From an uncultured Planctomycetia bacterium (lineage in GTDB: Bacteria; Omnitrophota; Gorgyraeia; Gorgyraeales; Gorgyraeaceae): a stretch of 64,000 nucleotides of DNA. Position numbers and translations under genes: made by a program. The stretch's first letter is position 1. Each line of letters begins with the position of its first letter. The stretch lies in assembly GCA_964415355.1 (NCBI GenBank), contig CAYPYS010000004.1:27220-91219 (forward strand), read 5' to 3'. Positions 2,772-30,569 of this stretch are shown here, piece by piece. Below the pieces are notes generated by a model. It was not told the DNA's origin, made no database searches, and saw only the letters and a list, made by a program, of their open reading frames with translations.

Positions 2772-3785
2772 ATGCTGGCAGATATAAACTTTATCTTATT
2801 CTTTATAGCCGTAACTCTGGCTGTAATTTTACTCGCGTTTCATTCCTATCTGACAAATGGTAAGCGGGTAACCTTCACCTTCTTCCTGTTTGCTTTCATC
2901 TGGGCTTTTATGAAAGAAAGCGCCCTGCCATTTTCTCCGATGTCTCCTTATGAATTTCTATTAGAAAATATTTCCATGACCCTGGTAATATTCACGGTTA
3001 TCTTTGGCTGGTTATTTACATTTTATATAAGCTGGCGTATAGCTGACAATATACTTGAAAGAATAGTATTTTTTAAAAAAAGTCTCTTTATGACATTGCT
3101 ATTGGGCATGTGGATTACAGCATCCATATCTTACGCGGTTGAATCAACGGGTATACATACTGATTGGTGGAAATGGAAAATAGACTGTTTAAAATTCTCA
3201 GATTTTCTCGTGCCAGCCTACAGCTATAATGCAGCGGGAGGTTGGATAGATTTTTTTATATATTTTATGTTAGCCTATTTTTTGATAGAGTGCTCAAAAT
3301 ATAAGACTGCCGCATGGAAATCTATATTCTTTTTAATGCCAGTGGCCTTTGTATTATTCTTGAGGGACGTTATCATGGCCAGAATGCTTGTGATTACCGC
3401 TGTAATTGTACTGGCTTTCTTAAATCCTCTGAAGTTATCCTATGAAAAAAATAAGACGAAAACCCTTGCCAAGTACTCGAGTATGATAGATTATCTGCCA
3501 CTAGCAATGACGGTTTTTATGATATTAATTATTGGACTTATAGACATCCTAGTAATAAAACAACCTTTGTTGCTTTTTTCTAAACTACCGATTGCATTTT
3601 GCGTCCTTTTTGCGATAAAAGAAATACCGTTTGTCGCCTTGGTTATATTATCCATTATTCTGCTTGCCCTTGGGGGCAAACTGGTTATTCCGGCTCTCAT
3701 TTTAACAATCTTTATTCTGTTATTAAAAATAATGGATTGGCTGCAAGTCCAGAAAAACAATCTATACGCTAAAATAATAAAGTGA
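2772..3785 (+). CDS. polytopic membrane protein, unknown family B (member 1 of 5)
   Basis: About 10 hydrophobic segments. Conserved motifs HSYxxxGxRxTFxFFLF, ATxxxxxWWxW, YFLIECSKYK, IFFLMP are shared with the ORFs at 23426, 24481, 25500 and 26498. Confidence 0.6.
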   Translation: MLADINFILFFIAVTLAVILLAFHSYLTNGKRVTFTFFLFAFIWAFMKESALPFSPMSPYEFLLENISMTLVIFTVIFGWLFTFYISWRIADNILERIVFFKKSLFMTLLLGMWITASISYAVESTGIHTDWWKWKIDCLKFSDFLVPAYSYNAAGGWIDFFIYFMLAYFLIECSKYKTAAWKSIFFLMPVAFVLFLRDVIMARMLVITAVIVLAFLNPLKLSYEKNKTKTLAKYSSMIDYLPLAMTVFMILIIGLIDILVIKQPLLLFSKLPIAFCVLFAIKEIPFVALVILSIILLALGGKLVIPALILTIFILLLKIMDWLQVQKNNLYAKIIK

Positions 3786-4246
3786 AAAATTTGTATATTC
3801 TTAAGCTAAAGTTACGTTTTATAAAAATTTTTTATACTATGTGCGTGTCTTTTTTAATTATCCTTTCACATTTCATATTGAGTCCGTATAATATTTTTAC
3901 ATTTTTAAGGTACGGCAGAGAAAAAATAACGATATCTGGAAAAGTCGTTTTTGACAACTACGCAAACGGTATAATAAAGATCGGAGCCTGGAGCAATGCG
4001 CTTAACAAAAGACAACCTATGCATCCGCCTGATATATCAAGAACAAAGATATTTAAACCCGGTTCGTTTCAACTCCCTGTCCCCAAGGATAGCGGGTTAA
4101 TCTACCTGTATGCTGTAAGCATGCCCAGGGAATTGCCTTTTTGGATAAGAGATCACCGACATAATTACCCTTTTGGTAGCTATAAAAATAACCCCTTGGA
4201 AGTCAAGGCATCTGATATAAAAGGGGTGCTTGTTGTAATAAAATAA
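3782..4246 (+). CDS. secreted single-repeat protein (family A, member 2)
   Basis: N-terminal hydrophobic segment. The ISGKVVFDNYANGIIKIGAW...GSFQLPVPKDSGLIYLYAV block is homologous to the repeats in the ORFs at 544 and 6901. Confidence 0.5.
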   Translation: MKNLYILKLKLRFIKIFYTMCVSFLIILSHFILSPYNIFTFLRYGREKITISGKVVFDNYANGIIKIGAWSNALNKRQPMHPPDISRTKIFKPGSFQLPVPKDSGLIYLYAVSMPRELPFWIRDHRHNYPFGSYKNNPLEVKASDIKGVLVVIK

Positions 4247-4257
4247 GGGAGATTTCA

Positions 4258-5439
4258 TTGAAACTATCAGTGCCTTTCAATGGCCAAAACGATCTTATAT
4301 CTAGGCTGAAAAAATATCCGGAGGTCACAGAACTCTATAGTAAATTAGCTTCTGATTTTATCGGAGGAGGAAAACATTCCTTCCAAATACCTTCTATATC
4401 CAAGAAAAAATTGGCCTGCAATATCAAGCAGGCTCATGAATACAAATTAAAATTTAACTATCTTTTAAACGCCAGCTGCCTCAATAACATGGAATGGACT
4501 ATTGCTGGCCAAAAAAAAATAACCCGACTCATCGAGTGGCTTGCCGGATTAAAAGTAGACGCGCTTACTGTGGCAACGCCCTACCTCTTGGAATTAATCA
4601 AAAAACGGTACCCTATGTTTAAAGTATGCGTCTCTGATTTAGCATATGTCAATTCCCTACAAAGGGCAAAACACTGGGAAAATTTAGGGGCGGATCGTAT
4701 CACCCTTTTTAACATCGATCTGAACAGGAATTTTACCCTACTTGAAGATATAAGAAAAAACATCAAGTGCGAATTAAAGCTCATTTTAAACGTAAATTGT
4801 CTATACGGGTGTCCTTTTTATATGTATCATGCAAACCTATCTTCCCATGCCTCTCAGTCCGAACATATTCTGAAAGGCTTTGTCATCGACTATTGCCGTA
4901 TAAAGTGTAGATATCAACAGATTATAGATCCAGTGGATTTTATACGAAGCACCTGGATAAGACCGGAGGATGTTGGCCATTATGAAAAAATAGGCATAGA
5001 CTTTTTTAAAATAATAGACCGTGGCATGACTACCCAAACGATAGCGTCCATAGTGAAAGCTTATATCAACAGAAACCACAGCGGCAACTTATTAGACCTA
5101 TTTCCTGATCCTTCAAAGAGCGTAATGTTTGCAAAAAAGGGACTGTCCACAAAAATTAAATATTTCCTGCGGCCGCTTACGGTTAATGTATTTAGATTGA
5201 GAAAATTTGCGAATCTATTCACAAATGCTATCTATATCGACAATAAAAAATTGGATGGTTTTATAGAAAATCTGAAAGATCAAAAATGCGGCAGGCAATC
5301 ATGCGAAGAATGCCAATATTGCCACGAGATGAGCAAAAAGGCGGTCTATATAAACGAAAAGGCCTGTAAAAAAATAAAAAAGCACTACGAAGCCTGTTTA
5401 AAAGACATTGTTTCAGGAAAGCTCTTCAGGTATTTCTAG
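4258..5439 (+). CDS. U32-family (UbiV/UbiU/RlhA-like) protein with Cys-rich C-terminus
   Basis: Probable TTG start. Motifs VTELY....GGG and AHEYKLKFNYLLNA resemble U32 TIM-barrel proteins. A C-terminal CGRQSCEECQYC cluster is present. Confidence 0.5.
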   Translation: MKLSVPFNGQNDLISRLKKYPEVTELYSKLASDFIGGGKHSFQIPSISKKKLACNIKQAHEYKLKFNYLLNASCLNNMEWTIAGQKKITRLIEWLAGLKVDALTVATPYLLELIKKRYPMFKVCVSDLAYVNSLQRAKHWENLGADRITLFNIDLNRNFTLLEDIRKNIKCELKLILNVNCLYGCPFYMYHANLSSHASQSEHILKGFVIDYCRIKCRYQQIIDPVDFIRSTWIRPEDVGHYEKIGIDFFKIIDRGMTTQTIASIVKAYINRNHSGNLLDLFPDPSKSVMFAKKGLSTKIKYFLRPLTVNVFRLRKFANLFTNAIYIDNKKLDGFIENLKDQKCGRQSCEECQYCHEMSKKAVYINEKACKKIKKHYEACLKDIVSGKLFRYF

Positions 5440-5453
5440 ATAAAATAAACTTT

Positions 5454-6923
5454 ATGAAAGTAATTTTAATAAATCCATTATCTGAATTGGCAGAAACAAG
5501 CGACGCTTATTATCATTCTGTTTCTCCGCTTCCACCTTTGGGGCTAGCCTATCTGTCTTCGGCTTTAAAAAATAACGGTTTCGAGGTCTCAGTAGAAGAC
5601 CAATACGCTAGCAGGTTGAGCAATGAGAGACTTATAAAAAAAATAAAAAATGCGTCCCCGCAAGTCGTAGGATTTTCCTGTCTCACAACAGCTATGGATA
5701 ATATAACAAGGTTTGCCAAAAAAATAAAAGCGTCTGATATAAAGACAAAGATCATTTTGGGAAATATCCACCCTACGATTTTCCCGGAGGAAACACTAAA
5801 AAGAGGAATAGCTGATATCGTCGTAAGGGGCGAAGGCGAGCAGACATTGACAGAGGCCATTGTCTCTCTGGATAAAGGGTATGACCTGGCTAATGTAAAG
5901 GGAATCAGTTATATCCGCAATGAGAAGATCATGCATAATCCTGACAGAGAAATTATTGAAGATTTAGACATGCTTTCGTATCCCGACTGGCATTCCCTGG
6001 ACTTAAGGAATTACAAAAACTACCCGCAATTGGGCATCTATAATAGGCTTGTTCTGCCTGTGCAGGCATCAAGGGGGTGCGCTTACGACTGCCTGTTTTG
6101 CTCACAAGATAAGATTTATAAAAAACCACGGTATAGAAATATAAAAAATGTAGTTAATGAAATAGAATATTACTATAAAGAATTCAAAATAGACTATATA
6201 GGTTTTAATGATGCCTATTTTCCTTTTTCGAAAACTTCCTGCTTAGAATTCTGCGATGAAATAATTCGGCGCAAACTGCATAAGAAGATAAAATGGTTCA
6301 CCGAAACACGGGTGGACATGGTTGATGTAGAATCTATCCGGCGTATGAAAGAAGCGGGTCTTTATTTAATTATGTATGGATTTGAAACAGGGAACCAAAA
6401 GGTTCTTGATGCTACAGGTAAAAAAACCACACTAATCCAAGCGAGAAAGGCCATAGAATACACCCGTAGATTTAAAATTCGCACTATGGGCCTATTTATG
6501 CTTGGGTTGCCTGCCGATACAAAAGATACATGCCGTGAAACTATTGGATTTGCCAAGGAACTTGATCCTGATATATGTAAGTTTAATATAGCTGTTCCAT
6601 ACCCGGGCTCTAAATTCTTTGATGAGCAGGATATTAAACTGAACAACATTTATAACGAAACCAATAGATACACAAGCTGGTCTGATTGGTCTTCCTATGA
6701 TGGCGAAATAATCTATAACCCGCCTTCGATGACTAAAAAGGAATTGCTAAATTTGCAAAGAAAAGGCATGTTTAGTTTTTATATGCGGCCCAAGATTATC
6801 TTAAGGTCACTTATTAAAAGAATCTTTTCTTTTCCTGATCTTTGGCATGGCGCTTGTCTTTTATTTAGAAACTATTTAAAAACACTGAAAGGAGGGAGAA
6901 ATGCAAAAAAATATCTTTCTTGA
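5454..6923 (+). CDS. B12-binding domain radical SAM protein (class B)
   Basis: N-terminal VILINP...PPLGLAYLSSAL Rossmann-like B12-binding region. Radical SAM cluster motif SRGCAYDCLFC. Confidence 0.85.
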   Translation: MKVILINPLSELAETSDAYYHSVSPLPPLGLAYLSSALKNNGFEVSVEDQYASRLSNERLIKKIKNASPQVVGFSCLTTAMDNITRFAKKIKASDIKTKIILGNIHPTIFPEETLKRGIADIVVRGEGEQTLTEAIVSLDKGYDLANVKGISYIRNEKIMHNPDREIIEDLDMLSYPDWHSLDLRNYKNYPQLGIYNRLVLPVQASRGCAYDCLFCSQDKIYKKPRYRNIKNVVNEIEYYYKEFKIDYIGFNDAYFPFSKTSCLEFCDEIIRRKLHKKIKWFTETRVDMVDVESIRRMKEAGLYLIMYGFETGNQKVLDATGKKTTLIQARKAIEYTRRFKIRTMGLFMLGLPADTKDTCRETIGFAKELDPDICKFNIAVPYPGSKFFDEQDIKLNNIYNETNRYTSWSDWSSYDGEIIYNPPSMTKKELLNLQRKGMFSFYMRPKIILRSLIKRIFSFPDLWHGACLLFRNYLKTLKGGRNAKKYLS

Positions 6924-7677
6924 TGCGCTTATCACTATAACAATTATTTTTATGAGCATCCAATTGTTTAATGCAAACATCGCTTGGTCTAAGCCAGTTC
7001 CTTCTGAAATCGCTGACAGCAAGACAATCACAGTCAAAGGCAGGATATACTATGATGATTATGATGAGCATAGAGGGGGATACATAATACTATATTGGGA
7101 GAGAATAGTGGGTCGTAGACCCATAGAGGAGAGCCAAGAGGGGGACCAGAAAAAGCCAATGGCAGGGCAGGACCAACCATTGGAAATAATAATCTTGACT
7201 GAACCAGGGGACTTTTCAATAGAAATCCCTAAAAATATGGGCATGGCATATCTAAGTGCCAAGTATCTAATAGATGAGGATTCCCCTGCAGAAGCTAGCG
7301 CTACTCATGAGATAATAGTAGGTTCAGACAACATGATAGTAGATCTACGGTTGGAAGAATGCAAAGAAATTGAATTTTATAAAGGACCCACGATAAAAAT
7401 TAGCGGCGAAGTTATCGTAAAGGATTATGAAATGGGCATTATACGCGTAGCATGCCCTGGCCTGGAGTTTCCAATCAAGCCTACAGATCTATTTGGCCCA
7501 GGGAAATATTCGCTAGAAGTACCTGTAGGAATTGGAAATGTAACGATTAAAGCTCTGAACATACCTGAGGATGATCCTGGTGAAGCAACCGGCGGTATGC
7601 CAGGTACACGCATAGGAACATATGATATATATGTAGAGACATATGATATCGACGGTGTAGATATCATGATAGAATAA
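6901..7677 (+). CDS. secreted protein with two tandem beta-sandwich-like repeats (family A, member 3)
   Basis: Signal/anchor, then VKGRIYYDDYDEHRGGYIILYW and ISGEVIVKDYEMGIIRVAC...GNVTIKALNIPEDDPGE. Clearly homologous to the ORF at 544. Confidence 0.6.
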   Translation: MQKNIFLDALITITIIFMSIQLFNANIAWSKPVPSEIADSKTITVKGRIYYDDYDEHRGGYIILYWERIVGRRPIEESQEGDQKKPMAGQDQPLEIIILTEPGDFSIEIPKNMGMAYLSAKYLIDEDSPAEASATHEIIVGSDNMIVDLRLEECKEIEFYKGPTIKISGEVIVKDYEMGIIRVACPGLEFPIKPTDLFGPGKYSLEVPVGIGNVTIKALNIPEDDPGEATGGMPGTRIGTYDIYVETYDIDGVDIMIE

Positions 7678-7705
7678 AACTAGAATTTAAAAAGGCTGCC
7701 AATAT

Positions 7706-9628
7706 ATGTGTGGGATTGCGGGTATATTATCGTTGGGGTCCTCTCTTCATAATAAAGATATTGAAGAAGCAAAAAATATGACAGAGATGCTTAAGCACAG
7801 AGGACCCGATAGTTCTGATATTTTCAAAGACCAAAAATGCATCCTAGGCAACACGCGGTTAAAAATTATTGATCTATCTGACAACGCCCGCTTACCTATG
7901 TCCAACGAAAACCAAAGCATATGGTTAAACTATAATGGCGAGGTCACTAATTTTAAAGACTTGAAAGAAGAATTCCGTCTGGAGCAAACACATAAATTTC
8001 GCTCAACTTCTGACGCCGAAGTCTTAATCCATTTATACGAGGAGCTTGGTATAAATTTTTTAAAATATCTAACCGGGATGTTTGCATTTTGTCTTTATGA
8101 TAAAAATATCGGGAAGGCCTATCTTGTAAGGGATTTTTACGGAATAAGGCCTTTGTTTTATTTAATTAATAAAAATAAATTCTATTTTGCGTCTGAAATA
8201 AAATCATTTTTAGACCTTTCCTGCTTTAATAACAAGATAGATCATGAAGCTATTTATCATTTTCTTTCTCTAGCATATATACCTGGTAAATTAACTCCGT
8301 TTGAAGATATACATGAAATAGAAGGCGGACATCTGTTAGAAATAGATCTAATAAAAGGGGCCTTTGAAGAAAAAGAATATTATAAAATTGATTATACGCC
8401 TGATTACTCTTTTTCAGAAGAGGCTACCGCTAAAAAATTACATGAAATCTTATTGGACTCTGTCTATAGAAATCTGATATCGGATAGACCAGTAGGATTG
8501 ACGCTCTCAGGCGGGTTTGATACAAGCACGCTTCTTAGTTTGACTAAAGAACTAGGGAAAAGTCAGGATATACATACATATTCTATCAAAATGGGCGAGT
8601 CAAGCTTTGACGAGTCGCACTATCAAAGATTAATGGTTGATTTTGCGAAACCAATACATCATGAAATCGCTGTAAATCCTCAGGATGTATTAGAAGACCT
8701 TGTAAGGCATATGGCTTACATGGATGAACCAAGTGGAGACGGCGCAGCCATCCCTTCTTTTATCTTGGCCAAAGAAGCAAAAAAACATGTCTCAGTTCTT
8801 CTCTCTGGCGAAGGAGGGGACGAGGTCTTTAATGCCTATGAAACGCACATGGCATATAAAATGCGCAAATATTATATCAAACATACAGCCCCCTGGCTAA
8901 GAAATGCAATCAAGGCATTTGCCGACAAACTACCTATTTCCTATAAAAAACTGAGCATTGACTTTCTTATGAAGCGTTTTACGGCCGGCTCGGAAAAGAA
9001 CATTCCGGAAGCGCATTTTTTTTGGCGACATGTGCTTTCTGAAGAAGAGAAAAAAAAATTAATGCCCAATTATTCTAATTTTAAAAAAACTGATTCTTTC
9101 TTTACGGAATTATTTGATTACTTAAGATTTGATGATGATTTAAACAAATTGTCTCTAATCGATATTAAATATTATTTTGTCGGTGACCTAATGGTGAAAA
9201 ATGACAGGACAATAATGGCACATTCTGTTGAAGCTAGATTCCCTTATATGGATAGATATGTTGTGGAATATGCCAGCAGGATTCCAACCAATATGAAGAT
9301 AAAAGGATTTAAGGGGAGGTATATACAGAAATTAGCCATGAAGAACCGTTTGCCTAAACAGATATTCTATAGAAAGAATATGGGATTAGAAATGCCTCAT
9401 TCGATATGGTTTCTCAATGAATTCAAGGATGTGGCTGAAAAATACTTTTCCAAAAAAAATGTAGAAAAGATCGGGGTCTTAGATCATGCAATAATAAAGT
9501 CTCTCTGGGAAGAGCACCTTGGTTTCCGGAGAGATAATGGACGGGCGCTATGGTGTATACTCAACCTCTTGATATGGTTTGATCTATTTATTCACAAAAG
9601 AGACTATAAAAAATATCTAACTCATTAA
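7706..9628 (+). CDS. asparagine synthetase (glutamine-hydrolysing) family amidotransferase, copy 1
   Basis: MCGIAGIL N-terminal nucleophile Cys. PP-loop LSGGFDTSTLL. Length 640 aa. Confidence 0.85.
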   Translation: MCGIAGILSLGSSLHNKDIEEAKNMTEMLKHRGPDSSDIFKDQKCILGNTRLKIIDLSDNARLPMSNENQSIWLNYNGEVTNFKDLKEEFRLEQTHKFRSTSDAEVLIHLYEELGINFLKYLTGMFAFCLYDKNIGKAYLVRDFYGIRPLFYLINKNKFYFASEIKSFLDLSCFNNKIDHEAIYHFLSLAYIPGKLTPFEDIHEIEGGHLLEIDLIKGAFEEKEYYKIDYTPDYSFSEEATAKKLHEILLDSVYRNLISDRPVGLTLSGGFDTSTLLSLTKELGKSQDIHTYSIKMGESSFDESHYQRLMVDFAKPIHHEIAVNPQDVLEDLVRHMAYMDEPSGDGAAIPSFILAKEAKKHVSVLLSGEGGDEVFNAYETHMAYKMRKYYIKHTAPWLRNAIKAFADKLPISYKKLSIDFLMKRFTAGSEKNIPEAHFFWRHVLSEEEKKKLMPNYSNFKKTDSFFTELFDYLRFDDDLNKLSLIDIKYYFVGDLMVKNDRTIMAHSVEARFPYMDRYVVEYASRIPTNMKIKGFKGRYIQKLAMKNRLPKQIFYRKNMGLEMPHSIWFLNEFKDVAEKYFSKKNVEKIGVLDHAIIKSLWEEHLGFRRDNGRALWCILNLLIWFDLFIHKRDYKKYLTH

Positions 9629-9663
9629 AATATACGGAACTATCTTATTTCTATAGTCTTGGA

Positions 9664-11121
9664 TTAAAAAAATGCCTTAAGTGCTAAATTTATAAGCTTG
9701 AATAAATTATTTATTCTTATTCTACGGAAATGTTTTATTATTTGGGATGGCCTTAGATAGAATTCTCTTTGCGCTTTCTTCTGGAGTCCCTTGATCTCTA
9801 AATAAGAGAGTCCCGGCGTAACCCATATCGGATTATTCTTAGTAAAAGATATATAAGACGAGTACCTTTCCCAAACTGAAATATCTACGCTTCCATCCTT
9901 TTTTATCCCGGTATCAAGTCGATTTTTTTCTGATAATTCTGTAAACAACGAAGAACCAGGGTATGGGACCAAGATACTAAATTGCGCCATATCCAAAGGC
10001 AGGCTTTTAGAAAATCGTATAGTCTGTAAAGAATCCTTATATGTCTCTCCGGGCAACCCTAGAATAAACAGACCAACTATATGAATTTTAGAGTATTTCC
10101 TTACTATATTGATGGATTCCTTTATCTGTTCGATCGTTATTTTTTTTCCCGCGCTATCCAATAATCTCTGGACACCTGATTCAATGCCAAAATCAAGAGA
10201 ATAGCAACCTGCTGATTCGATCTCTTCTACCAATCTAGGAGTTATATGATTAACATGGGCATCACAACCCCATTTAATGTTCAGCTGTCTCTTTCTGATT
10301 TCTGAACATATCCTGAGAATGCGGTCTCTATCGCCCATAAAAAGCGGATCTGTTATCGTTATATAAGAAGCCCTGTATTCCTTTTCTAACACCTCCATCT
10401 CATCTACCACTCTTCTGGCGCTGTTGAAACGCTGTTTGCCATTATTGCGCACAACACAAAATATACAGTCATAAAGACATCCCCTGGATGTCGACATCGT
10501 CTTGGATATAGTTCCTTTCTTCCCAACGTAAAACTGATTGCTAATCTCGATTAGATTATACAATCTCTGATTAACTAAATCCCGCGCTGGAAATGGTAAT
10601 GTCGTTAAATCCAGGGTAACTTCTCTATCCGGAATCCTGCAATACATCCTTCCATCGCGAACAAAGGATATCCCCGGAATATCTCTAAGCCCTAACTCTT
10701 TTTTACGAAATTGTATTATTTTCAAGAAGGCAAATTCTCCTTCTCCGTGCACAACAATATCACAGCATCTATTTTCCAAATATTGCTTTGCGTATACAGA
10801 TGCATGCACATTACCTAGAACAACGAGTGCTTCCGGAATATTATTTTTTAACCAGCTGCCTAAATCATAAACTATTGCTCCATTGCAAGTTAAGGTTGAA
10901 ATCCCCACAATATCTGGTTTATAATTTAATATTTGCGTCTTTAAATCAGCTATACGCAATCCTTCGGCATAGGCATCTATGACCGCAACATCATAGCCGT
11001 TTTCTCTGATCACCGCTGCTATATATAGCAAGCCGAGCGGCTCATATCTTTGAACGAACTCTTCCCCTGATCCTAACAAACGTCCTAATCCCGCCGGTGG
11101 ATTCACAAGAAGAACCTTCAC
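9664..11121 (-). CDS. B12-binding domain radical SAM protein (class B)
   Basis: MKVLLVNPP...EPLGLLYIAAVIR B12-binding-like N-terminus. SRGCLYDCIFC motif. Only minus-strand gene in the cluster. Confidence 0.85.
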   Translation of the reverse strand: MKVLLVNPPAGLGRLLGSGEEFVQRYEPLGLLYIAAVIRENGYDVAVIDAYAEGLRIADLKTQILNYKPDIVGISTLTCNGAIVYDLGSWLKNNIPEALVVLGNVHASVYAKQYLENRCCDIVVHGEGEFAFLKIIQFRKKELGLRDIPGISFVRDGRMYCRIPDREVTLDLTTLPFPARDLVNQRLYNLIEISNQFYVGKKGTISKTMSTSRGCLYDCIFCVVRNNGKQRFNSARRVVDEMEVLEKEYRASYITITDPLFMGDRDRILRICSEIRKRQLNIKWGCDAHVNHITPRLVEEIESAGCYSLDFGIESGVQRLLDSAGKKITIEQIKESINIVRKYSKIHIVGLFILGLPGETYKDSLQTIRFSKSLPLDMAQFSILVPYPGSSLFTELSEKNRLDTGIKKDGSVDISVWERYSSYISFTKNNPIWVTPGLSYLEIKGLQKKAQREFYLRPSQIIKHFRRIRINNLFKLINLALKAFF

Positions 11122-11235
11122 TTGACCTCCTTTAAATCTTTAATTTTATTGTATACCAAACTATGGGTCTTTTCAAGGCAAGCATTGCCGATGCCCCGGA
11201 CTATACAAGTTTAAGTTTTGTGCCACTATTACCTG

Positions 11236-11244
11236 TGCTATAAT
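11236..11244 (+). promoter_or_regulatory. extended -10 element TGCTATAAT in the divergent intergenic region upstream of the GT2 gene
   Basis: TGnTATAAT match about 36 nt upstream of the ATG at 11280. Confidence 0.3.
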
Positions 11245-11279
11245 ATAAGAAACACGATGTAACCTGGCTGAGGCAAAAA

Positions 11280-11981: not shown

Positions 11982-11988
11982 GAAGCCT

Positions 11989-13851: not shown

Positions 13852-13879
13852 TCATGGCATTCTTATCGAAGTCAATTTT

Positions 13880-15418: not shown

Positions 15419-15442
15419 AAATCGATATCTAATACGAAACAG

Positions 15443-16867: not shown

Positions 16868-16878
16868 GCAGGATAAAA

Positions 16879-18420: not shown

Positions 18421-18437
18421 AATTAAAATATTAATAT

Positions 18438-19934: not shown

Positions 19935-19946
19935 CAGGATAGGATC

Positions 19947-21002
19947 ATGAATATCGTAGCGCCTGTAAGCAGAATTAGCGATGTAATGGCTGTTATCGAA
20001 GCTGGTGCGGATGAAATATACTGCGGCCTTTTAACTAACGACCAGCTAGATAATTATACAAATATTAATTGTCTTAACCGTAGATCAGAACCATCATCCA
20101 ATATTACCAGTTATAGCGAGCTTAAAGAAGTCATAAAGATAGCTCGTTCGAAAAACATCCCTATCAATTTCACCTTAAACGAATTCTATAACCAAGAACA
20201 AACCACTATAGCCCTAAGGCAACTCGAAAAGATCCTGGAGTGCGGCATAAAAAGATTTATAGTATCGGATCTAGGGCTTCTACATGAAATAAGAAAAAGA
20301 AAATATCCCGATTTAAAACTGCACATAAGTTCCTGCGCCTCCATATTAAACTCTGAAGCCATGCGATATTACAAAGATTTCAACCCTTCAAGAATAATAT
20401 TAAACAGGCAGTTAAGTCTTTCGGAAATCGACCACATGCGACTACAATTCCCAACATTAGAAATGGAGGTGATTATTCTAAACGAAAGGTGTCATTACAT
20501 AGACGGGATGTGTGGTTTTCTTCATGGCAGACTGTCGCCCGCTTATAATCTTTTCGTACGCTCGATATTGGAAAAGATATCCAATAGAGATAAATATCCT
20601 ATCCCGCGTTTTCTATTAAAAAAATTGCACCTCTATGTGCTAAAAAATAATAATAGCTGCTGCTTTCCATACCATGTGCAATATTGTTCCACAAGAACCG
20701 TCCGAGGGAGAAAGACATCTAAAGAGAAGATATTTTTTAATAAGGCCGGGGTTTTTCTACAGGCCTGTGGTCTCTGTGCCATATACGATTTTTATAAGAT
20801 AGGGATAAAATATTTTAAGATCTCAGGACGATCCCTGTTGGCAGAAAAGACCATGGCCGTCAAACTAGTGAAAGAAGCCGCAAATATAGTGCGAGAAAAT
20901 TTAACAAAAAATGACTCTCAGGAAAGAATCAAGGATATTGCCCGAAATAAATATCGCAAGGCTTGCTCTCCAGAATATTGTTACTACTGCGATAACCTTT
21001 AA
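19947..21002 (+). CDS. U32-family protein (UbiU/RlhA-like)
   Basis: MNIVAPVSRISDVMAVIEAGADEIYCGL matches the U32 N-terminus (ELLAPAG..A...GADAVY.G). Cys motifs CHYIDGMCGF and LQACGLC are present. Confidence 0.6.
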   Translation: MNIVAPVSRISDVMAVIEAGADEIYCGLLTNDQLDNYTNINCLNRRSEPSSNITSYSELKEVIKIARSKNIPINFTLNEFYNQEQTTIALRQLEKILECGIKRFIVSDLGLLHEIRKRKYPDLKLHISSCASILNSEAMRYYKDFNPSRIILNRQLSLSEIDHMRLQFPTLEMEVIILNERCHYIDGMCGFLHGRLSPAYNLFVRSILEKISNRDKYPIPRFLLKKLHLYVLKNNNSCCFPYHVQYCSTRTVRGRKTSKEKIFFNKAGVFLQACGLCAIYDFYKIGIKYFKISGRSLLAEKTMAVKLVKEAANIVRENLTKNDSQERIKDIARNKYRKACSPEYCYYCDNL

Positions 21003-21012
21003 TAAAATTTAT

Positions 21013-21804
21013 ATGGAATATGCTATTTATTTTTCAAAAATCGACAAATTAAAGGCGTGCGATTTGGATAAATACGAAAGGGTATATTTTGGCAATGAAT
21101 TCTGCGACCAGTTGATACCGTCCATAGCGAAATTTGAGGATGCGCTTTCTTTTGTCAAAAAAATGGAGAAACGTATTAGTTTTGTTACATGCTACGTAAG
21201 TGAACATAACATAAAAAAATATCACCCCCTTATAGAATTATTAGCCAAAAATGCCCCGGACAGCGAGGTAATCATAAATGACTTGGGGCTATTGAGGATA
21301 TGTCTTCAAAACAATCTGACGCCTGTTCTAGGAAGATTGCTTGTAAAACAGAAGCGAGATCCCCGTATAGCCAAGTTTATAGGCTCCCTTTCTCCCAGGG
21401 AAAAATTACACATGCAACAGGCTGGCCTCAATAAGTATTTTATAGACTTTTTGAAACGAAAGAATATAAATAGGATAGAGCTAGACAATTTGCTGCAAAA
21501 CATAGATATAAATGAATTACAAGATTCTGGATTTTCATTCTCTCTTTATGTGCCATACGGTTATATAACCACTACCAGGTTGTGTCTCTTCCGCAATAAA
21601 AACAAAGAGGACAGCGGAAGGCTAGACCTCATGCCTTGTAACCGTGAGTGCGCCAGGGGACCGGTCAAGCTGCACAATAAACGGCTGAAAGAAATCTTAT
21701 TTATGAAAGGCAATACTATATTCTTCAAAAATACGTCCGAAGATCTCTTGCGACACAACTCAAAGATCGACAGAGTGATTCATCAACCAGAAATTCCAGA
21801 TTAA
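21013..21804 (+). CDS. U32-family-like protein (UbiV-like partner?)
   Basis: RVYFGNEFCDQ, INDLGLLR, and a C-terminal Cys group (LCLFRN...MPCNRECARG). Start taken at ATG 21013 rather than the overlapping 20911. Confidence 0.45.
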   Translation: MEYAIYFSKIDKLKACDLDKYERVYFGNEFCDQLIPSIAKFEDALSFVKKMEKRISFVTCYVSEHNIKKYHPLIELLAKNAPDSEVIINDLGLLRICLQNNLTPVLGRLLVKQKRDPRIAKFIGSLSPREKLHMQQAGLNKYFIDFLKRKNINRIELDNLLQNIDINELQDSGFSFSLYVPYGYITTTRLCLFRNKNKEDSGRLDLMPCNRECARGPVKLHNKRLKEILFMKGNTIFFKNTSEDLLRHNSKIDRVIHQPEIPD

Positions 21805-21807
21805 AAA

Positions 21808-23424
21808 ATGCGTACATCTATAAAACAACATAAAAATACAATATATATGCTCTTATTGGGGCTGGTGCTTCTTGTCGGATTATTTTTAAGATTATACAAC
21901 CTGGATTTTAAAAGTCTCTGGTTTGATGAAGCTGATGTGGTCCTCAGTTCTACAAGCATCTCTGATGCCTCTAAAATCCTGGACTATCACAATCCAATAC
22001 TCTTTTACCGAATATTCATTTTCTACTGGAGACATTTATCTCCTTATGCCAACGAGTGGCTCCTTAGGCTGCCCTCTGTTATTTTCGCATTAGGGGCGAT
22101 AATATTGATATACAAACTGACCTTCATTCTTTTTGGCAACAAACAAGTAGCTTTAATAAGCGCTCTGTTGCTTTGCATATCTCCGCTACATGTTTATTAT
22201 TCGCAAGAAGCGACCTGTTATTCTCTCATAGCCTTTCTTTCTCTGGCAACGGCGTATTGTTTTTTTAACCTGCCTAAGAGACGCGGGATTTATTTTTCCC
22301 TATATGTAGCATTGCATCTGATAGGCGCGTATGCCCATCCAATAATGCTGGTGGTTTTCCTGACACAAAATCTCTTTCTTGTAATCCGGAGAGAGAGATT
22401 CCAAAAGGTTATTGTAAAAATAATATTGTGCGATCTAGTAATAATATTATTATACAGCCCCGCCTTGTACTCAATCCTTTCAGGGCACGAATTTTTATTC
22501 ATCAAAGACCATTTTGCTTTTAAGCGGGCTTCTGTCTGGATACCCGTCCCCGCATGGAGAAGTCTTTTTTTCACTCTTAAAAATTTTACCATAGGGTACA
22601 ATAATCCTGGGTTTCTATATCCCGCAGCCGTGATTTTTTTTCTTGTATCCATCATCAAAGGGATCCTGAATTTAATAAAAAAAGAAAATGGCTTGATGAT
22701 ATTGATTTTTCTTTTAGCGCCGATCCTTTTTATATTTACCGTCGGGAAGATAACGACATTTTCATATTATGTGGATAGATATTTTTTATGTTGTCTTCCT
22801 TTTTTCTGCATGACAGTTGCCTATAGCATACATGCTCTAAATAAAAAATATCTTCAAATTGGGACAATATTTATTATCACGGCCATATCAGCCATCAACC
22901 TGAACAACTATTACCGCAATGTCATACCGGATGATGAGTGCAGGCGCCATCTAGGCGTTGTCGAGAGAAAGGATATAAAAAAAGCTGCCCAATATATCAA
23001 TGAACATCTCGGCCCAGGTGACACCCTGTTCCATACATGCCGCAATACAGCGCTGCCATTTGAGTATTATTTTGATTTTCATTTTAAGAAAACTACGGAC
23101 ATCTTTAAATATTACATTGAACGTACTGACAATAAACAAAAAATCCTATCCTATTTTCCTCAGACTAATAGTTTAAAAGTATACAAATACGCCGTGCTGA
23201 GCGAGGTCTTTCAGGATGAGATAATAGAATTGGATGATTACGAGATCCCGGATAATGGGATCTGGCTGGTTTTTTCATCTTGGCTCACCCCTCGTCCAGA
23301 TGACGCAGAGTCGAACACCCTTAGCTATATGGAAAAAAACTACGCAAAAATACGGGAAAAAAGATTCAAGGGCATCACGGTATATTTATATAGAAAAAAT
23401 AAGGCCTTTGATGATATGATATAA
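21808..23424 (+). CDS. GT-C fold membrane glycosyltransferase (ArnT/PMT_2-like)
   Basis: LGLVLLVGLFLRLYNL...WFDEADVV loop motif, ISPLHVYYSQEATCYSL. Confidence 0.6.
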   Translation: MRTSIKQHKNTIYMLLLGLVLLVGLFLRLYNLDFKSLWFDEADVVLSSTSISDASKILDYHNPILFYRIFIFYWRHLSPYANEWLLRLPSVIFALGAIILIYKLTFILFGNKQVALISALLLCISPLHVYYSQEATCYSLIAFLSLATAYCFFNLPKRRGIYFSLYVALHLIGAYAHPIMLVVFLTQNLFLVIRRERFQKVIVKIILCDLVIILLYSPALYSILSGHEFLFIKDHFAFKRASVWIPVPAWRSLFFTLKNFTIGYNNPGFLYPAAVIFFLVSIIKGILNLIKKENGLMILIFLLAPILFIFTVGKITTFSYYVDRYFLCCLPFFCMTVAYSIHALNKKYLQIGTIFIITAISAINLNNYYRNVIPDDECRRHLGVVERKDIKKAAQYINEHLGPGDTLFHTCRNTALPFEYYFDFHFKKTTDIFKYYIERTDNKQKILSYFPQTNSLKVYKYAVLSEVFQDEIIELDDYEIPDNGIWLVFSSWLTPRPDDAESNTLSYMEKNYAKIREKRFKGITVYLYRKNKAFDDMI

Positions 23425-23425
23425 A

Positions 23426-24484
23426 ATGATGGTTGTATTATTCGCCTTAACTATCTTTTTAGCATTTTACCTCCTCTTATCAATGCGACATTGTCACCTT
23501 AAAAGAGGAGGGAGGCTGACCTTCACCTTTTTCTTTTTTGGCTTCCTCTATATCTCAAGATGGGTAATAAAAAATATGGGGCCTTCGCCGGAATATTTAA
23601 AAACAGCTCGATGCTCGATCTTCTCCGCAAGGACAAGCTTATTGAGTACGCTGTCTAGCGCAAAAGACCCAGCGATAAATTTTATTCATGTGTTATTAGT
23701 GCATATTGTAATTATTATAGGCTGGCTTTGCCTATTCTACGCTGGTTGGTGGCTGGCAGAGAGGATTATGCGACATTTCGATATTTTGCAAAAGCGCCTT
23801 TTCCCTACCTTGCTGCTAAGTTCTTTTATAACCGCTAGCATCGCATATCCTATTGAAGCGACAGGGAGCAGTATTGGCTGGTGGTGGTGGCAATTGCCTG
23901 CTAAATCATTCGATATATTCTTCATCGGCTGCCCAGCACAACCCATGAGGGCTGAATTTTACTCTGTTCTTTTATTTCTGGCAGCGTATTTTTTAATCGA
24001 GTGCTCGAGGTTCAGGCATAAAAGTTGGCGGATGCTCTTTTTCTTATTACCGTTCGTGCATTTCTTTACCATAACTTTTTTCGGTCATGGTCTGCCAAGG
24101 GCCATCGAACGTCTCGGAATCTTTATAACAATCCTGATATTAACATTTTTTAGCAAACTATCCTTAGAAAATACAGGGGAAGATGACCTCTCCACGCTTA
24201 AGAGCGTGGAGGATTTATTGTCCATAGCATTGATTTCTCTGTTATCCCTGTCGTGCCTTGTGCATATATTTATAATCCAAAAGCCGCTATTAGTCTTTTC
24301 AGCATTGCCTGCTTTCTTTTTTTATTTACTGTCTATAAAAAAGGAGCTGTTTGTCCTGGTCCTGATTTTTAGCGTAGCATTGCTATTTTTAGGTAAAACT
24401 ATAGCAGCGCCTCTAATGGTGCCGATATCTATTTTTTTGGTGTTTAAGGCAAGTGACCATTATCAAAAAAGGGTGGCGAAATGA
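23426..24484 (+). CDS. polytopic membrane protein, family B (member 2)
   Basis: Family motifs HCHLKRGGRLTFTFFFF, GWWWWQLP, YFLIECSRFRHK, LFFLLPFVHFF. Confidence 0.6.
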   Translation: MMVVLFALTIFLAFYLLLSMRHCHLKRGGRLTFTFFFFGFLYISRWVIKNMGPSPEYLKTARCSIFSARTSLLSTLSSAKDPAINFIHVLLVHIVIIIGWLCLFYAGWWLAERIMRHFDILQKRLFPTLLLSSFITASIAYPIEATGSSIGWWWWQLPAKSFDIFFIGCPAQPMRAEFYSVLLFLAAYFLIECSRFRHKSWRMLFFLLPFVHFFTITFFGHGLPRAIERLGIFITILILTFFSKLSLENTGEDDLSTLKSVEDLLSIALISLLSLSCLVHIFIIQKPLLVFSALPAFFFYLLSIKKELFVLVLIFSVALLFLGKTIAAPLMVPISIFLVFKASDHYQKRVAK

Positions 24485-25506
24485 ACATATGGCCTGCGTT
24501 TTTAATATGCCTTTTGGGTATCTTGGTATTTATACTGCATTCTTATTCAAGACAGGGCCCGAGATTAACGTTTAATTTTTTCTTTTTTGCCTTCCTTGTC
24601 GCCATCATAAAAGAAGGGCCCATGCGCATAAATGGCTTATTAATGAAAAACCCTTCTATGCCGTATGAGTTTTTAATAAAAGGGGTGCCTGTGGTTGCCA
24701 GTACCACGTTAGTAATACTAGGCTGGGTCTTTACTTTCTATTTGGGCTGGTATATTGGGGGAAGGGTTTCGGAAAGATTGGGCGCATGGCAAAAGCGCAT
24801 CTTCCCGACACTGCTTTTGAGCGGTCTGGTAACAGCAAGCATTGGTTACTGCGTTGAGGCCACAGCAATGGGGCTCGGATGGTGGCACTGGACAATAGAA
24901 GATGCTAGATTAGCCCCTCTTTTAGTAGGCGCCCCTTTCATTGTCTTCGAGACCTGGGTACACTTCCCCACACAATATCTGCTTATGCCTTATTCTTTAA
25001 TAGAATGCTCGAGATTTAAAAGAATGTCCTGGAAGGGTATATTTTTTGTAATACCTTTTATTCACAGCCTTTCCACGCAAGCGCGATTAGAATCTGTAAG
25101 AATAGGGGTTGAGCATGCGGCATTAATGGTCCTGCTGGTCCTCGCCTTTACTAATCCATTACGCTTTGATTACTCAGGGATAAAAAAGCACGAAGGGGTA
25201 TCTTTTCTTAAACCAAAACTATTAGATCAATTGCCGATGGCGGTGATGATAATGTTATTATCTACGCTGGCCCTACTTGACGTGGCAAAGATACATGATG
25301 CGGGACTGGTTATATCGATACTTCCGGCAATGTTTTTTATCCTGCTCGCAATCAAGAGAATACCTTTTTATTGGATAGCGTCCCTTGCGCTTCTGTGCTT
25401 TCTGATATTACAAAAACAGGCGATTATAGCAACGGCTCCAGTCGCTATCGTATTGATTTTCAAAAGCGCGATGAAAATCACGTCTAATTTAAAAGGAGAA
25501 TGCTAA
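24481..25506 (+). CDS. polytopic membrane protein, family B (member 3)
   Basis: ATGA start/stop overlap with the ORF at 23426. Motifs HSYSRQGPRLTFNFFFF, GWWHW, SLIECSRFKRM, PFIH. Confidence 0.6.
   Translation: MNIWPAFLICLLGILVFILHSYSRQGPRLTFNFFFFAFLVAIIKEGPMRINGLLMKNPSMPYEFLIKGVPVVASTTLVILGWVFTFYLGWYIGGRVSERLGAWQKRIFPTLLLSGLVTASIGYCVEATAMGLGWWHWTIEDARLAPLLVGAPFIVFETWVHFPTQYLLMPYSLIECSRFKRMSWKGIFFVIPFIHSLSTQARLESVRIGVEHAALMVLLVLAFTNPLRFDYSGIKKHEGVSFLKPKLLDQLPMAVMIMLLSTLALLDVAKIHDAGLVISILPAMFFILLAIKRIPFYWIASLALLCFLILQKQAIIATAPVAIVLIFKSAMKITSNLKGEC
25111..25391 (+). repeat. 281-bp segment identical to 26100-26381 (copy 1, inside family B member 3)
   Basis: Read base by base: identical from GAGCATGCGGCATTAATGG through GCGTCCCTTGCGCT. 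Confidence 0.85.
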
Positions 25507-26501
25507 TGGTTACTATAAACTTCGTTATTCTTTGCGGTGTTGGAATAATTGCTTGCGTCTTACATTCCTATTTTAAGAGGGGAGGCGCCTTGACGCTGAA
25601 TTTTTTCCTGTTTTCATTCATGCTGACCTTCACCAGGGGTGGAGTACATATTTTCAAATTTATAAACTCATCCGGGCCAAGTTCTATTATAGTTAAGGCA
25701 GCGCTTTCTACATTAATATGGGTGCTCGCATTTTATCTTTCTGTATATATCGCCGAAAAGGTCGCTGACAGGTCGACTCAGATAAAGCACAGGATCTTCC
25801 CTGTGCTATTGTTCGCCGGAATAACTATCTCTGCTATCGCCTATGCCTTCGAGACCACAGCTACAAACATCGGCTGGTGGGCTATTCCCGTTACAGATGT
25901 CGACAGCGGGTTTTTGCTTACCCCTTTTTATGTAATAAGAAAATGGTTTTATTTTTATGTCTATTTTTTAGCTGCTTATTTCCTGATTGCCTGCTCAGAA
26001 TACAAGAGAAAAAACTGGAAGACAATCTTTTTTATACTGCCGTTCGTTCACGCCTGGATACCGCGATTCTTTGGAGAAGGGCTCCCCCAAATTATTGAAG
26101 AGCATGCGGCATTAATGGTCCTGCTGGTCCTCGCCTTTACTAATCCATTACGCTTTGATTACTCAGGGATAAAAAAGCACGAAGGGGTATCTTTTCTTAA
26201 ACCAAAACTATTAGATCAATTGCCGATGGCGGTGATGATAATGTTATTATCTACGCTGGCCCTACTTGACGTGGCAAAGATACATGATGCGGGACTGGTT
26301 ATATCGATACTTCCGGCAATGTTTTTTATCCTGCTCGCAATCAAGAGAATACCTTTTTATTGGATAGCGTCCCTTGCGCTGATATCTCTATTGCTATTAA
26401 AAAAACTGGCACTACCTATTATCGTACCTGTTGGTTTTTTGATCATTTTCTGTTCTATCGTAAAAACGCGTGCTAAAACAACAAACATACCGCTGAAATG
26501 A
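25500..26501 (+). CDS. polytopic membrane protein, family B (member 4)
   Basis: HSYFKRGGALTLNFFLF, GWWAIP, YFLIACSEYKRK, LPFVHAW. Confidence 0.6.
   Translation: MLMVTINFVILCGVGIIACVLHSYFKRGGALTLNFFLFSFMLTFTRGGVHIFKFINSSGPSSIIVKAALSTLIWVLAFYLSVYIAEKVADRSTQIKHRIFPVLLFAGITISAIAYAFETTATNIGWWAIPVTDVDSGFLLTPFYVIRKWFYFYVYFLAAYFLIACSEYKRKNWKTIFFILPFVHAWIPRFFGEGLPQIIEEHAALMVLLVLAFTNPLRFDYSGIKKHEGVSFLKPKLLDQLPMAVMIMLLSTLALLDVAKIHDAGLVISILPAMFFILLAIKRIPFYWIASLALISLLLLKKLALPIIVPVGFLIIFCSIVKTRAKTTNIPLK
26100..26381 (+). repeat. about 281-bp segment identical to 25111-25391 (copy 2, inside family B member 4)
   Basis: Same as above. Encodes the identical protein segment EHAALMVLLVLAFTNPLRFDYSGIKKHEG...RIPFYWIASLAL. 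Confidence 0.85.
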
Positions 26502-27532
26502 GCGTCTTTCATCTATTTTTCTTTGCGTTGATAGGCCTTGCCTTGCTTATAGTCCACTCATATTTCAAGAGGGGGTTCCGTCTTACTTTGAACTTTTTCT
26601 TATTAGCCTTTATCGTCGGATTAAGAAAAGAATCCGGTAGTTTTCTACAGCCCATGTCGGTCAGGACGCAGTACCCCACGCCTTTTATCCATGCCAATGA
26701 CTCACCATTACTTTTCAATGTGATCAATATAACTATAGGCTGGATAATCGTTTTTTATCTCTCCTGGTATATAGCTGAAAATATTATTAAAAAAATACCT
26801 CATGTTAAAGAAAAAATATTCCCTGCGGCATTATTCGCCGGGGTATCCATAGCCGCCTTTTCGTATGCCATCGAGGCGACGGCTATAAATATCGGGTGGT
26901 GGAGATGGATGTTTTTTGAAAAACAATTTTCCGGATTTCTGGTGGGCGGCGTTCATTTCTTTGCACTCAACGCCTGGTTCTCTTTTGGCCTTCACTTCTT
27001 AGTCCCTTTCTTTTTGATAGAGTGTTCGAAGTTTCGCAAGGCGAGCTGGAAATGCATATTCTTTCTCATCCCGTTCTCGAGGACATGCACCATGCTTTTT
27101 CTCGGCTCGCACATACATCGCAGTATACATGAATTCATCTTCTTTCTTGTATTAATAATACTGGTATTTATCCAACCATTACAGTTTAATTACCCGCAAT
27201 TTAAAACAAGATTGTCCGTACATCCTTTCCAGCGCAAATTGATCGAAGCCATCCCCTTAGCCGTAATCCTTATGATCCTGATTGTGCTGAGTTATGTCGA
27301 TCTGATACAGATAAAAAATGTCTACTTGCTAGTCAGTCTTCTTCCTTTTATTGTGCTTGTGTTTTTAGCTTTTAAAAAAATACCGCCGCTATTGATCTTG
27401 TTGTTCACTGCGGCAATATTGTTAAGTCTTGGCAAGGCAGGGATCCCCGCATGCATGCCTGCATTGGCAGTTTTGGGCCTTTTGGGGATAGGAAATCTTA
27501 TGGCCAGCAAAAAATACTCCAAGGCTATATAA
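26498..27532 (+). CDS. polytopic membrane protein, family B (member 5)
   Basis: ATGA overlap with the ORF at 25500. HSYFKRGFRLTLNFFLL, GWWRWMFF, FLIECSKFRKASWK. Confidence 0.6.
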   Translation: MSVFHLFFFALIGLALLIVHSYFKRGFRLTLNFFLLAFIVGLRKESGSFLQPMSVRTQYPTPFIHANDSPLLFNVINITIGWIIVFYLSWYIAENIIKKIPHVKEKIFPAALFAGVSIAAFSYAIEATAINIGWWRWMFFEKQFSGFLVGGVHFFALNAWFSFGLHFLVPFFLIECSKFRKASWKCIFFLIPFSRTCTMLFLGSHIHRSIHEFIFFLVLIILVFIQPLQFNYPQFKTRLSVHPFQRKLIEAIPLAVILMILIVLSYVDLIQIKNVYLLVSLLPFIVLVFLAFKKIPPLLILLFTAAILLSLGKAGIPACMPALAVLGLLGIGNLMASKKYSKAI

Positions 27533-27537
27533 AATAT

Positions 27538-30407: not shown

Positions 30408-30411
30408 GGCA

Positions 30412-30561: not shown

Positions 30562-30569
30562 GTGATGCC

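Follow-up and report, generated by a model that had tools for sequence, protein, structure and literature searches.

Five paralogous membrane proteins of an Omnitrophota envelope island as a putative divergent branch of the CruF-like PF04240 superfamily

Why should a bacterium encode five versions of the same polytopic membrane protein, four of them in tandem? This question is raised by contig CAYPYS010000004.1 of an Omnitrophota genome (assembly GCA_964415355.1), of which a stretch of 64,000 nucleotides (nt), hereafter the window, has been analysed. A first-pass annotation, made from the letters of the DNA, had recognised the five genes as a family and had left them without an assignment, proposing polymerases, ligases or flippases for different glycans. 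Judged by profile comparisons, the five proteins are a divergent, expanded and extended branch of the CruF-like PF04240 superfamily. Their genes recur next to genes for B12-binding radical S-adenosylmethionine (SAM) enzymes, and the cluster as a whole points to anaerobic tailoring of lipids or glycolipids by an undescribed system, rather than to a set of glycan polymerases or flippases. Relatives and loci from elsewhere are given below as P and L numbers.

Family identity and the link to PF04240

The products of the five open reading frames (ORFs) share 30-33% pairwise identity across their whole length, with 34 invariant alignment columns, and the motifs by which they had been grouped (HSY..RG..LT.NFF, E.T...GWW.W, LIECS and IFF..PF) are present in all of them. 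A hidden Markov model (HMM) of the family, run against all six-frame ORFs of the window, picks out exactly these five with E-values between 1e-80 and 1e-158, and no sixth ORF matches at E<=10; the relationship is therefore far beyond chance, and the grouping into one polytopic paralogue family holds.

Direct searches are silent on what the family might be. None of the five proteins matches Pfam or NCBIfam, and scans that included consensus sequences and distant long members returned no membrane family; PF04240 itself is not matched by the consensus or the distant long members at E<=10. Two family profiles searched against PDB sequences gave noise only (LIP1 and a designed 'Tet4 variant'), and no internal duplication was detected within the family protein. 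An AlphaFold2 (AF2) model of member 3 is of good quality (predicted local distance difference test score 86.8, predicted template modelling score 0.89) and shows eleven helices with small beta elements in two loops. In Foldseek searches against the PDB, neither this model nor that of the relative P0150 found anything significant (best E 0.6 and 0.7). A mycobacterial Insig homologue was considered as a structural match and rejected, its Foldseek probability of 0.75 being accompanied by an E-value of 0.86.

The connection to a known family emerges through the relatives. A word-indexed search found 21 of them, one labelled Candidatus Omnitrophica, and an exhaustive profile search raised this number to 255 cluster representatives (clusters at 50% identity), 65 of which lie below 1e-30; a word-indexed profile search with a diverse core alignment returned close relatives only, and scans of genome and metagenome loci gave only 3 + 1 loci. 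All cluster names examined are 'hypothetical' or 'uncharacterized membrane protein'. The short member P0111 carries a precomputed weak match to PF04240 (Caroten_synth, 'Carotenoid biosynthesis protein') in a context look-up, and this model scores above the Pfam gathering cut-off of 25 bits in three of the ten short members scanned: P0150 (36.4 bits), P0111 (30.6 bits) and P0158 (26.8 bits), all of which cover the model almost end to end. The same three proteins match the window-family profile at E 8e-16, 1.6e-22 and 7.9e-15, respectively, and 12 out of 12 close relatives of P0150 are PF04240-annotated.

Profile-profile comparison makes the link explicit. Aligned by hhalign, the window subfamily and the PF04240-annotated group reach a probability of 99.2% in local mode (E 3.4e-19) and 99.5% in global mode over 239 columns, with H20, G26, K44-E45, P61, G81-W82, Y87, F108, E126, GWW.W, P152 and W159 identical. 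A PF04240-annotated protein of locus L014 finds window member 1 by blastp at E 3e-14, and in the AF2 models of member 3 and P0150 the first seven transmembrane (TM) helices and beta loops follow in the same order. AttH- or CrtC-type Pfam models were not seen in the family scans, the only family match being that to PF04240 in the short relatives. The earlier verdict that no known family could be assigned is thus superseded, by transitive and profile-profile searches, for the 7-TM core. A well-characterised superfamily with known function had been named as the outcome that would overturn the first reading, and this has come about in part: PF04240 is a known family, but a function has been shown only for its CruF members. 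The literature refers to PF04240 as the 'carotenoid synthase' domain of terpene clusters (PMC8692599), and to IPR007354 as a 'carotene biosynthesis associated membrane protein' (PMC6016940).

Each window protein consists of a 7-TM core of ~235 amino acids (aa) and a 4-TM C-terminal extension. Many relatives are only ~245 aa long and cover profile positions 4-235, and TM1-7 therefore constitute the conserved core. The predicted 11-TM topology places the N-terminus outside and the C-terminus inside, and a positive-inside count with AF2 helix boundaries gives 17.9 lysines plus arginines in the predicted inner loops versus 5.5 in the outer loops. In the diverse core alignment H20, G81, E126, W135, W137 and W159 are invariant, and G26, F34, Y62, W82, Y87 and F108 nearly so; E126 is predicted in the section of TM4 that lies in the outer leaflet, close to the periplasmic end of the helix. 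The cysteine of the IECS motif, previously suggested as a catalytic residue, does not survive the wider comparison: C176, at the predicted cytoplasmic end of TM5, is not conserved in the wider family and is F in the PF04240-annotated group, as is H195.

Additional clues to the topology come from fusion proteins. C-terminal TPR repeats are found in 33 of the 92 relatives scanned and a sulfatase-fold domain in eight, and in all fusions examined a basic stretch and then one extra hydrophobic helix link the family domain to the soluble domain; the family domain therefore has a cytoplasmic C-terminus, with the appended domains on the periplasmic side. The third module of this kind is a TM-anchored beta domain, found at the C-terminus of the fused relatives P0029 and P0049. 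The product of the window ORF at 3782-4246 is 47% identical over 147 aa to residues 340-483 of P0029, and from this similarity it appears to be a split version of the C-terminal beta domain of the fused members. The active-site stretch of the sulfatase fold was read in one fusion, P0125 (locus L009), the available sequence of P0096 (locus L003) stopping just before the motif. P0125 has T-V-P-A-H at the C/S-x-P-x-R site of S1 sulfatases; going by this motif, its nucleophile would be Thr, as in the phosphotransferases EptA and LtaS, instead of formylglycine. Divergently upstream of both sulfatase-fused genes lies a conserved 298-aa gene whose family is unassigned.

Radical SAM partners and candidate functions

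Loci from other genomes provide the context in which the family is to be read. Five Omnitrophota-type loci (L001/L002, L005, L006, L007 and L015) have a core set in common, with three to four paralogues, two to three B12-binding radical SAM genes, the U32-family genes U32a and U32b with the partner of the latter, and both types of GT-C glycosyltransferase; the association with GT-C and radical SAM genes noted in the window thus recurs in synteny. More distant loci differ. L014, from a genome of 3.17 Mb and 58% GC, combines in one operon a GT2 glycosyltransferase, six B12-binding radical SAM enzymes, a SAM methyltransferase, a small TM ORF and a short family member, and in L013 two B12-binding radical SAM genes adjoin the family member. 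In L008 the member is followed by a gene resembling geranylgeranyl pyrophosphate (GGPP) synthase, a 'variant radical SAM' gene, two ChlG/DGGGPS-like UbiA genes, a B12-binding radical SAM gene and a radical SAM/SPASM gene. L003 has a sulfatase-fused member beside counterparts of the L008 variant radical SAM (42% identity) and UbiA (35%) genes. These two distant loci, from two lineages, are the only ones with isoprenoid genes (GGPP-synthase-like, UbiA), a machinery of the C20 type. The contexts of L004 and L009, which encode fusion proteins, and of some short contigs are uninformative; separate Wzy_C genes are present in L001 and L004, that of L004 encoding a Wzy_C+TPR protein. A B12-binding radical SAM gene is adjacent to a family gene at window member 5 and in L013, L014, L008, L001, L005 and L015. 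Since the loci surveyed recurrently pair the two, the class-B radical SAM enzyme is the most consistent partner of the family across phyla.

Three side observations concern these loci. In L001, L005 and L015 the orthologues of window genes 2 and 4 frequently comprise the 7-TM core only (222-249 aa) and lie immediately before a long paralogue, which suggests short+long family pairs; the four tandem genes of the window are all long. In L013 (2245-2550, 101 aa) and L014 (9772-10020, 82 aa), from two unrelated GC-rich genomes, a small hydrophobic ORF runs into the start of the short PF04240-like gene and may encode a small membrane subunit. L005 (JAVHQB010000093.1) is labelled Candidatus Paceibacterota; its 16-kb cluster is gene-for-gene syntenic with the Omnitrophota clusters at protein identities of <=68%, which suggests mis-binning or lateral transfer.

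What could such a system do? CruF is a cofactor-free carotenoid 1',2'-hydratase that hydrates an isolated double bond of an isoprenoid, the tertiary-alcohol product being subsequently glycosylated and acylated (PMC6013536, PMC7414004). By analogy, we tentatively favour a role of the family as lipid C=C hydratase-like enzymes that act together with radical SAM partners; homology, architecture, the reasoning on topology, the fusions and the conserved neighbourhood are established, and chemistry, substrate and order of steps are our proposal. In this model a C=C bond of a lipid tail, isoprenoid or alkyl, would receive a proton from Glu126, which is invariant and lies within the membrane; the carbocation so formed would be stabilised by the aromatic set W82, Y87, W135, W137, W159, F34 and F108 and captured by water, yielding a tertiary alcohol, with the paralogues as regio- or substrate-specific variants. 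The co-clustered B12-binding radical SAM enzymes could methylate or desaturate otherwise inert lipid tails, U32 hydroxylase-like proteins may act alongside the CruF-like proteins, and the ArnC-like GT2/GT-C machinery would decorate the hydroxylated lipid at the periplasmic face. Extended to its limit, the proposal would describe an O2-independent pathway, distributed over Omnitrophota and unrelated anaerobes, that makes a new class of polyhydroxylated, methylated glycolipids by means of radical SAM enzymes, CruF-like hydratases, U32 proteins and GT-C enzymes. In that pathway the radical SAM enzymes would methylate or desaturate inert tails of membrane lipids or polyprenyls, the hydratases, possibly as short+long heteromers, would turn the resulting double bonds into outer-leaflet tertiary alcohols, more hydroxyl groups would come from U32-type hydroxylases, and GT-C enzymes would glycosylate those positions in the periplasm; in this complete form we regard the pathway as speculative and rather unlikely.

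Several observations weigh against the hydratase proposal. The link to PF04240 is transitive, the five window proteins failing to match the Pfam model even at E<=1, and it extends to canonical CruF through the membership of the latter in PF04240/IPR007354, not through a direct sequence comparison; a tblastn search of plasmids with a PF04240-like member, made in search of an annotated CruF, had no match. A hydratase model does not account for the invariant H20, which is predicted on the cytoplasmic side, far away from E126. Periplasmic TPR, sulfatase-like and beta-domain fusions would suit a transferase, a scaffold or a transporter better, and we know of no hydratases with fusions of this kind. 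Finally, carotenoid and isoprenoid-synthesis genes are absent from the window and from the syntenic loci.

Because the face of H20, the fusions and the lack of isoprenoid genes are unexplained by the hydratase model, a non-catalytic role stays alive, and it is the strongest competitor even if we consider it unlikely. The CruF-like fold would then bind or translocate a lipid or lipid-linked intermediate, for instance as the missing polyprenyl-phosphate-sugar flippase of the ArnC-like GT2/GT-C system or as a membrane dock that passes a lipid between cytoplasmic radical SAM enzymes and periplasmic modules. Conserved residues on both faces of the membrane would fit such a role (H20-S..RG and basic loops inside; E45, E126, GWW.W and W159 outside), and so would the ArnC-like GT2 and five GT-C genes of a tightly packed cluster in which no recognisable GtrA, Wzx or ArnE/F flippase gene is found, the match in number between five paralogues and five GT-C genes, and the periplasmic partners suggested by fusions and split pairs. 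However, the sole characterised relatives, CruF, are enzymes, and a buried Glu accompanied by a set of Trp and Tyr residues, all invariant, is a pattern typical of carbocation chemistry. The loci also speak against this role: the L014-type operon has GT2 and radical SAM genes but no GT-C, L008 and L003 carry isoprenoid genes without GT2 or GT-C, and paralogues and radical SAM genes are unequal in number (5:4 in the window, 1:6 in L014).

Still further down the scale, and distinctly unlikely in our judgement, the proteins could be CruF-superfamily enzymes that cyclise or isomerise an isoprenoid chain in a proton-initiated reaction, possibly as short+long heteromers. The invariant Glu and the aromatic set suit cyclases equally well; the adjoining short and long genes of L001, L005 and L015 have a parallel in the heterodimeric membrane lycopene cyclases CrtYc/CrtYd, and GGPP-synthase-like and UbiA genes in L008 and UbiA in L003 supply an isoprenoid context. 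Against this, none of the Pfam scans of the family revealed a sequence link to lycopene-cyclase-domain families. The original suggestion of Wzy-, WaaL- or GT-C-type polymerases, ligases or transferases, one variant per glycan, is very improbable: adjoining GT2/GT-C genes and C-terminal periplasmic TPR fusions, which are common in GT-C and Wzy_C proteins (e.g. the Wzy_C+TPR protein of L004), speak for it, but hhalign scores only 0.2% against both GT-C groups of the window where the positive control between those groups gives 96.1%, scans of the family against Pfam and NCBIfam contain no signal of Wzy_C (PF04932), PMT or other GT-C, GtrA or Wzx (the last two leaving a flippase equally without homology support), L001 has its own Wzy_C gene, the N-out topology with a short first loop is unlike GT-C, and there is positive homology to PF04240 instead.

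Tandem genes, a conversion tract and the envelope island

The coordinates of all features are collected in Table 1. The four tandem genes had been described as translationally coupled through 4-nt overlaps, and the tight junctions stand, with ATGA overlaps between genes 2 and 3 and between genes 4 and 5, and a start of gene 2 that lies 1 nt past the stop of the upstream GT-C gene. The junction of genes 3 and 4 does not conform, since a start of gene 4 at ATG 25500 gives an overlap of 7 nt, and one at ATG 25506 an overlap of 1 nt (TAATG). The latter start is the more likely one; it lies 7 nt downstream of AAGGAG, and its product agrees with the database protein P0013 (331 aa).

Table 1. Features of the window (positions in nt)
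Feature	Position	Strand	Remarks
Beta-domain protein, TM-anchored	544..1287	+	two copies of periplasmic beta domain
GDSL-lipase/acylhydrolase + TPR protein	1334..2689	+	similar GDSL-TPR protein in L001
Family member 1	2772..3785	+	337 aa; CruF-like 7-TM core + 4-TM extension
Periplasmic beta-domain protein, TM-anchored	3782..4246	+	154 aa; 4-nt overlap with member 1
U32a, U32 family	4258..5439	+	related to O2-independent hydroxylases TrhP/UbiU; kept in L005, L007, L015
B12-binding radical SAM (class B)	5454..6923	+	Pfam B12-binding + Radical_SAM
TM-anchored protein	6901..7677	+	beta domain of the 3782 and 544 products
AsnB-type glutamine amidotransferase	7706..9628	+
B12-binding radical SAM	9664..11121	-
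GT2	11280..11981	+	ArnC-like polyprenyl-phosphate sugar transferase
AsnB-type glutamine amidotransferase	11989..13851	+
GT-C (PMT_2)	13880..15418	+
B12-binding radical SAM	15443..16867	+
GT-C (PMT_2/PMT)	16861..18420	+
GT-C-like (LA_3751/LA_3752 family)	18438..19934	+	hhalign 96% to PMT_2 group
U32b + overlapping partner	19947..21804	+	UbiU-like, 351 aa; partner 297 aa, of no known family
GT-C (PMT_2)	21808..23424	+	directly upstream of tandem array
Family member 2	23426..24484	+	352 aa
Family member 3	24481..25506	+	341 aa; AF2-modelled; probable tract donor
Identical tract, gene-3 copy	25111..25391	+	aa 211-304
Family member 4	25500..26501	+	333 aa (331 aa from ATG 25506); probable tract recipient
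Identical tract, gene-4 copy	26100..26380	+	exact match to 25111..25391
Family member 5	26498..27532	+	344 aa
B12-binding radical SAM	27451..28926	+	directly after member 5
GT-C-like (LA_3751/LA_3752 family)	28923..30407	+	last gene before dnaA

Genes 3 and 4 have an identical tract of exactly 281 nt in common, as reported before except for the end of the second copy, which is 26380 and not 26381. The tract is in frame 0 in both genes, identity in the flanks falls immediately to 20-45%, and it spans the end of TM7 to the start of TM10, i.e. the less conserved extension outside the core. Gene-3 orthologues from other samples (P0002-P0006) are about as similar to the tract as to the remainder of gene 3, and gene 3 is the likely donor because the tract resembles these orthologues. 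The tract most probably reflects a recent gene conversion from gene 3 to gene 4 in the putatively non-catalytic extension; of the two explanations offered earlier, conversion or duplication, the former is favoured by the sharp in-frame boundaries and the gene-3-orthologue-like sequence.

An artefact of assembly or polishing has been considered and is improbable. Assemblers do struggle here: P0180 and P0181, encoded on short contigs (1929 and 1343 bp) from other assemblies, are exact hybrids that join the N-terminus of gene 3 to the tract and the C-terminus of gene 4, and they could represent a segregating deletion that arose by unequal crossover, or else a jump of the assembler over the 281-nt repeat. 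However, two assemblies, the 91-kb contig and the ENA scaffold L016 (4,234 bp, 100% identical to window positions 23011-27244 with both tract copies included), resolve the copies identically and with distinct flanks, both ORFs are intact and in frame, and the tract has a sharp left and a graded right boundary, as conversion predicts. A collapse, moreover, would normally break the contig or delete a copy; it would not generate two.

The first 30 kb of the window form one envelope island that ends at dnaA. Apart from the five family members it encodes three beta-domain proteins, a WbuX-like fragment, a GDSL-lipase/TPR protein, three U32-family proteins or partners, four B12-binding radical SAM enzymes, two AsnB-type amidotransferases, an ArnC-like GT2 and five GT-C proteins (three PMT_2 and two LA_3751-like). 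The NCBIfam matches of the B12-binding radical SAM genes are all sub-threshold, that at 5454..6923 falling below the cut-off for BchE, HpnJ and other named models. The radical SAM gene behind member 5 probably starts at ATG 27538 and not at ATG 27451, which would create an 82-nt overlap with member 5; the in-frame ATG 27538 lies 5 nt past the member-5 stop and gives 462 aa, matching a 460-aa orthologue in L001 (47% identical). The 297-aa partner of U32b reaches only 44% against U32 in hhalign, and the pair, which is kept in L005, L007 and L015, may form a UbiU/UbiV-like two-subunit O2-independent hydroxylase. A PDB sequence search with the 297-aa and 247-aa neighbours returned nothing, and the beta domain common to the 3782, 544 and 6901 products has no Pfam, NCBIfam or PDB match. 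A promoter and terminator scan of positions 11000-30900 is uninformative on operon limits: promoter-like sites are about as frequent as chance predicts, and the terminator-like sites fall within genes.

Beyond the island, dnaA-dnaN-dciA-gyrB-gyrA begins at 30570, and the island therefore lies directly beside the likely replication origin. Within the island (1-31000) G+C is 0.34-0.41, versus 0.39-0.48, mostly 0.43-0.48, downstream (31000-64000), and the cumulative GC skew, flat over the first ~30 kb, rises steadily thereafter. Inserted in gyrA (36095-39841, 1248 aa) is an intein that carries a LAGLIDADG homing-endonuclease domain (Pfam Intein_splicing and LAGLIDADG_3, residues ~148-560). A single giant ORF of 3410 aa occupies 42526-52758 on the plus strand; very long proteins have been reported for Omnitrophota (bioRxiv 10.64898/2026.06.07.730766).

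Comparison with known systems

To our knowledge, CruF-type proteins are known solely as carotenoid hydratases. The window family would add a deep, previously unannotated branch of the superfamily that is multiplied within loci, equipped with periplasmic fusions and consistently linked to B12-binding radical SAM genes without accompanying carotenoid genes. Homology to PF04240 lessens the mystery of the five proteins, and the recurrent pairing turns it into a specific lead towards lipid chemistry. The practical value lies in a family definition and a testable hypothesis, with function inferred, and not in a demonstrated pathway: the loci offer candidate genes for unknown bacterial lipids and an annotation handle for a conserved, origin-adjacent envelope island of Omnitrophota.

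CruF itself and the window family have in common a homologous 7-TM core of ~210-235 aa, in which the invariant H, E and W residues align with PF04240-annotated proteins, and a glycosyltransferase gene nearby, as where CruF is followed by CruC/CruG. In contrast to CruF, the window proteins miss the Pfam model directly and carry the extra 4-TM extension, there are three to five paralogues per locus, and relatives carry fusions with TPR, sulfatase-like or beta domains in the periplasm. The neighbours differ as well, being B12-binding radical SAM, U32 and GT-C genes, with no crtB, crtI, crtD or lyeJ and no cruC or cruG in the window or the syntenic loci, and the host is an Omnitrophota-type bacterium without carotenoid genes within the window.

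Glycosylation and phosphotransfer systems offer partial parallels. Three-component periplasmic glycosylation systems (ArnC/GtrB GT2, flippase, ArnT/Gtr GT-C) resemble the cluster in its ArnC-like GT2 and several GT-C genes, but none of the components is homologous to the family, which could at most occupy the flippase slot, by analogy. The membrane-anchored transferases EptA/MCR-1 and LtaS of the alkaline-phosphatase superfamily, like eight of the 92 relatives, combine an N-terminal polytopic domain with a periplasmic sulfatase-fold domain, and the Thr of P0125 is a further likeness; the TM domains are unrelated, however (11+1 TM, CruF-like, versus 5 TM), and the sulfatase domain of the relatives is nearer in sequence to arylsulfatases and choline sulfatases and absent from the window proteins.

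A functional parallel may come from archaea, where Ted, a B12-binding radical SAM tetraether desaturase, and Hgs, a hydratase of the AttH/CrtC type, make hydroxylated glycerol dialkyl glycerol tetraethers anaerobically, and where the Ted gene overlaps the Hgs gene (Garcia et al., bioRxiv 10.1101/2025.10.20.683597). Both systems place B12-binding radical SAM genes adjacent to, or overlapping, a gene of a carotenoid-hydratase family, and both would serve the O2-independent functionalisation of lipid tails, a purpose that we infer for the window. Unlike Hgs, the window family is a CruF-like membrane protein and not of the AttH/CrtC type; its hosts are bacterial, and its loci combine many paralogues with GT-C, U32 and AsnB genes. 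Taken together, the two cases suggest a general strategy by which anaerobes functionalise hydrocarbon lipid tails, namely through the pairing of radical SAM enzymes with hydratases of the carotenoid type.

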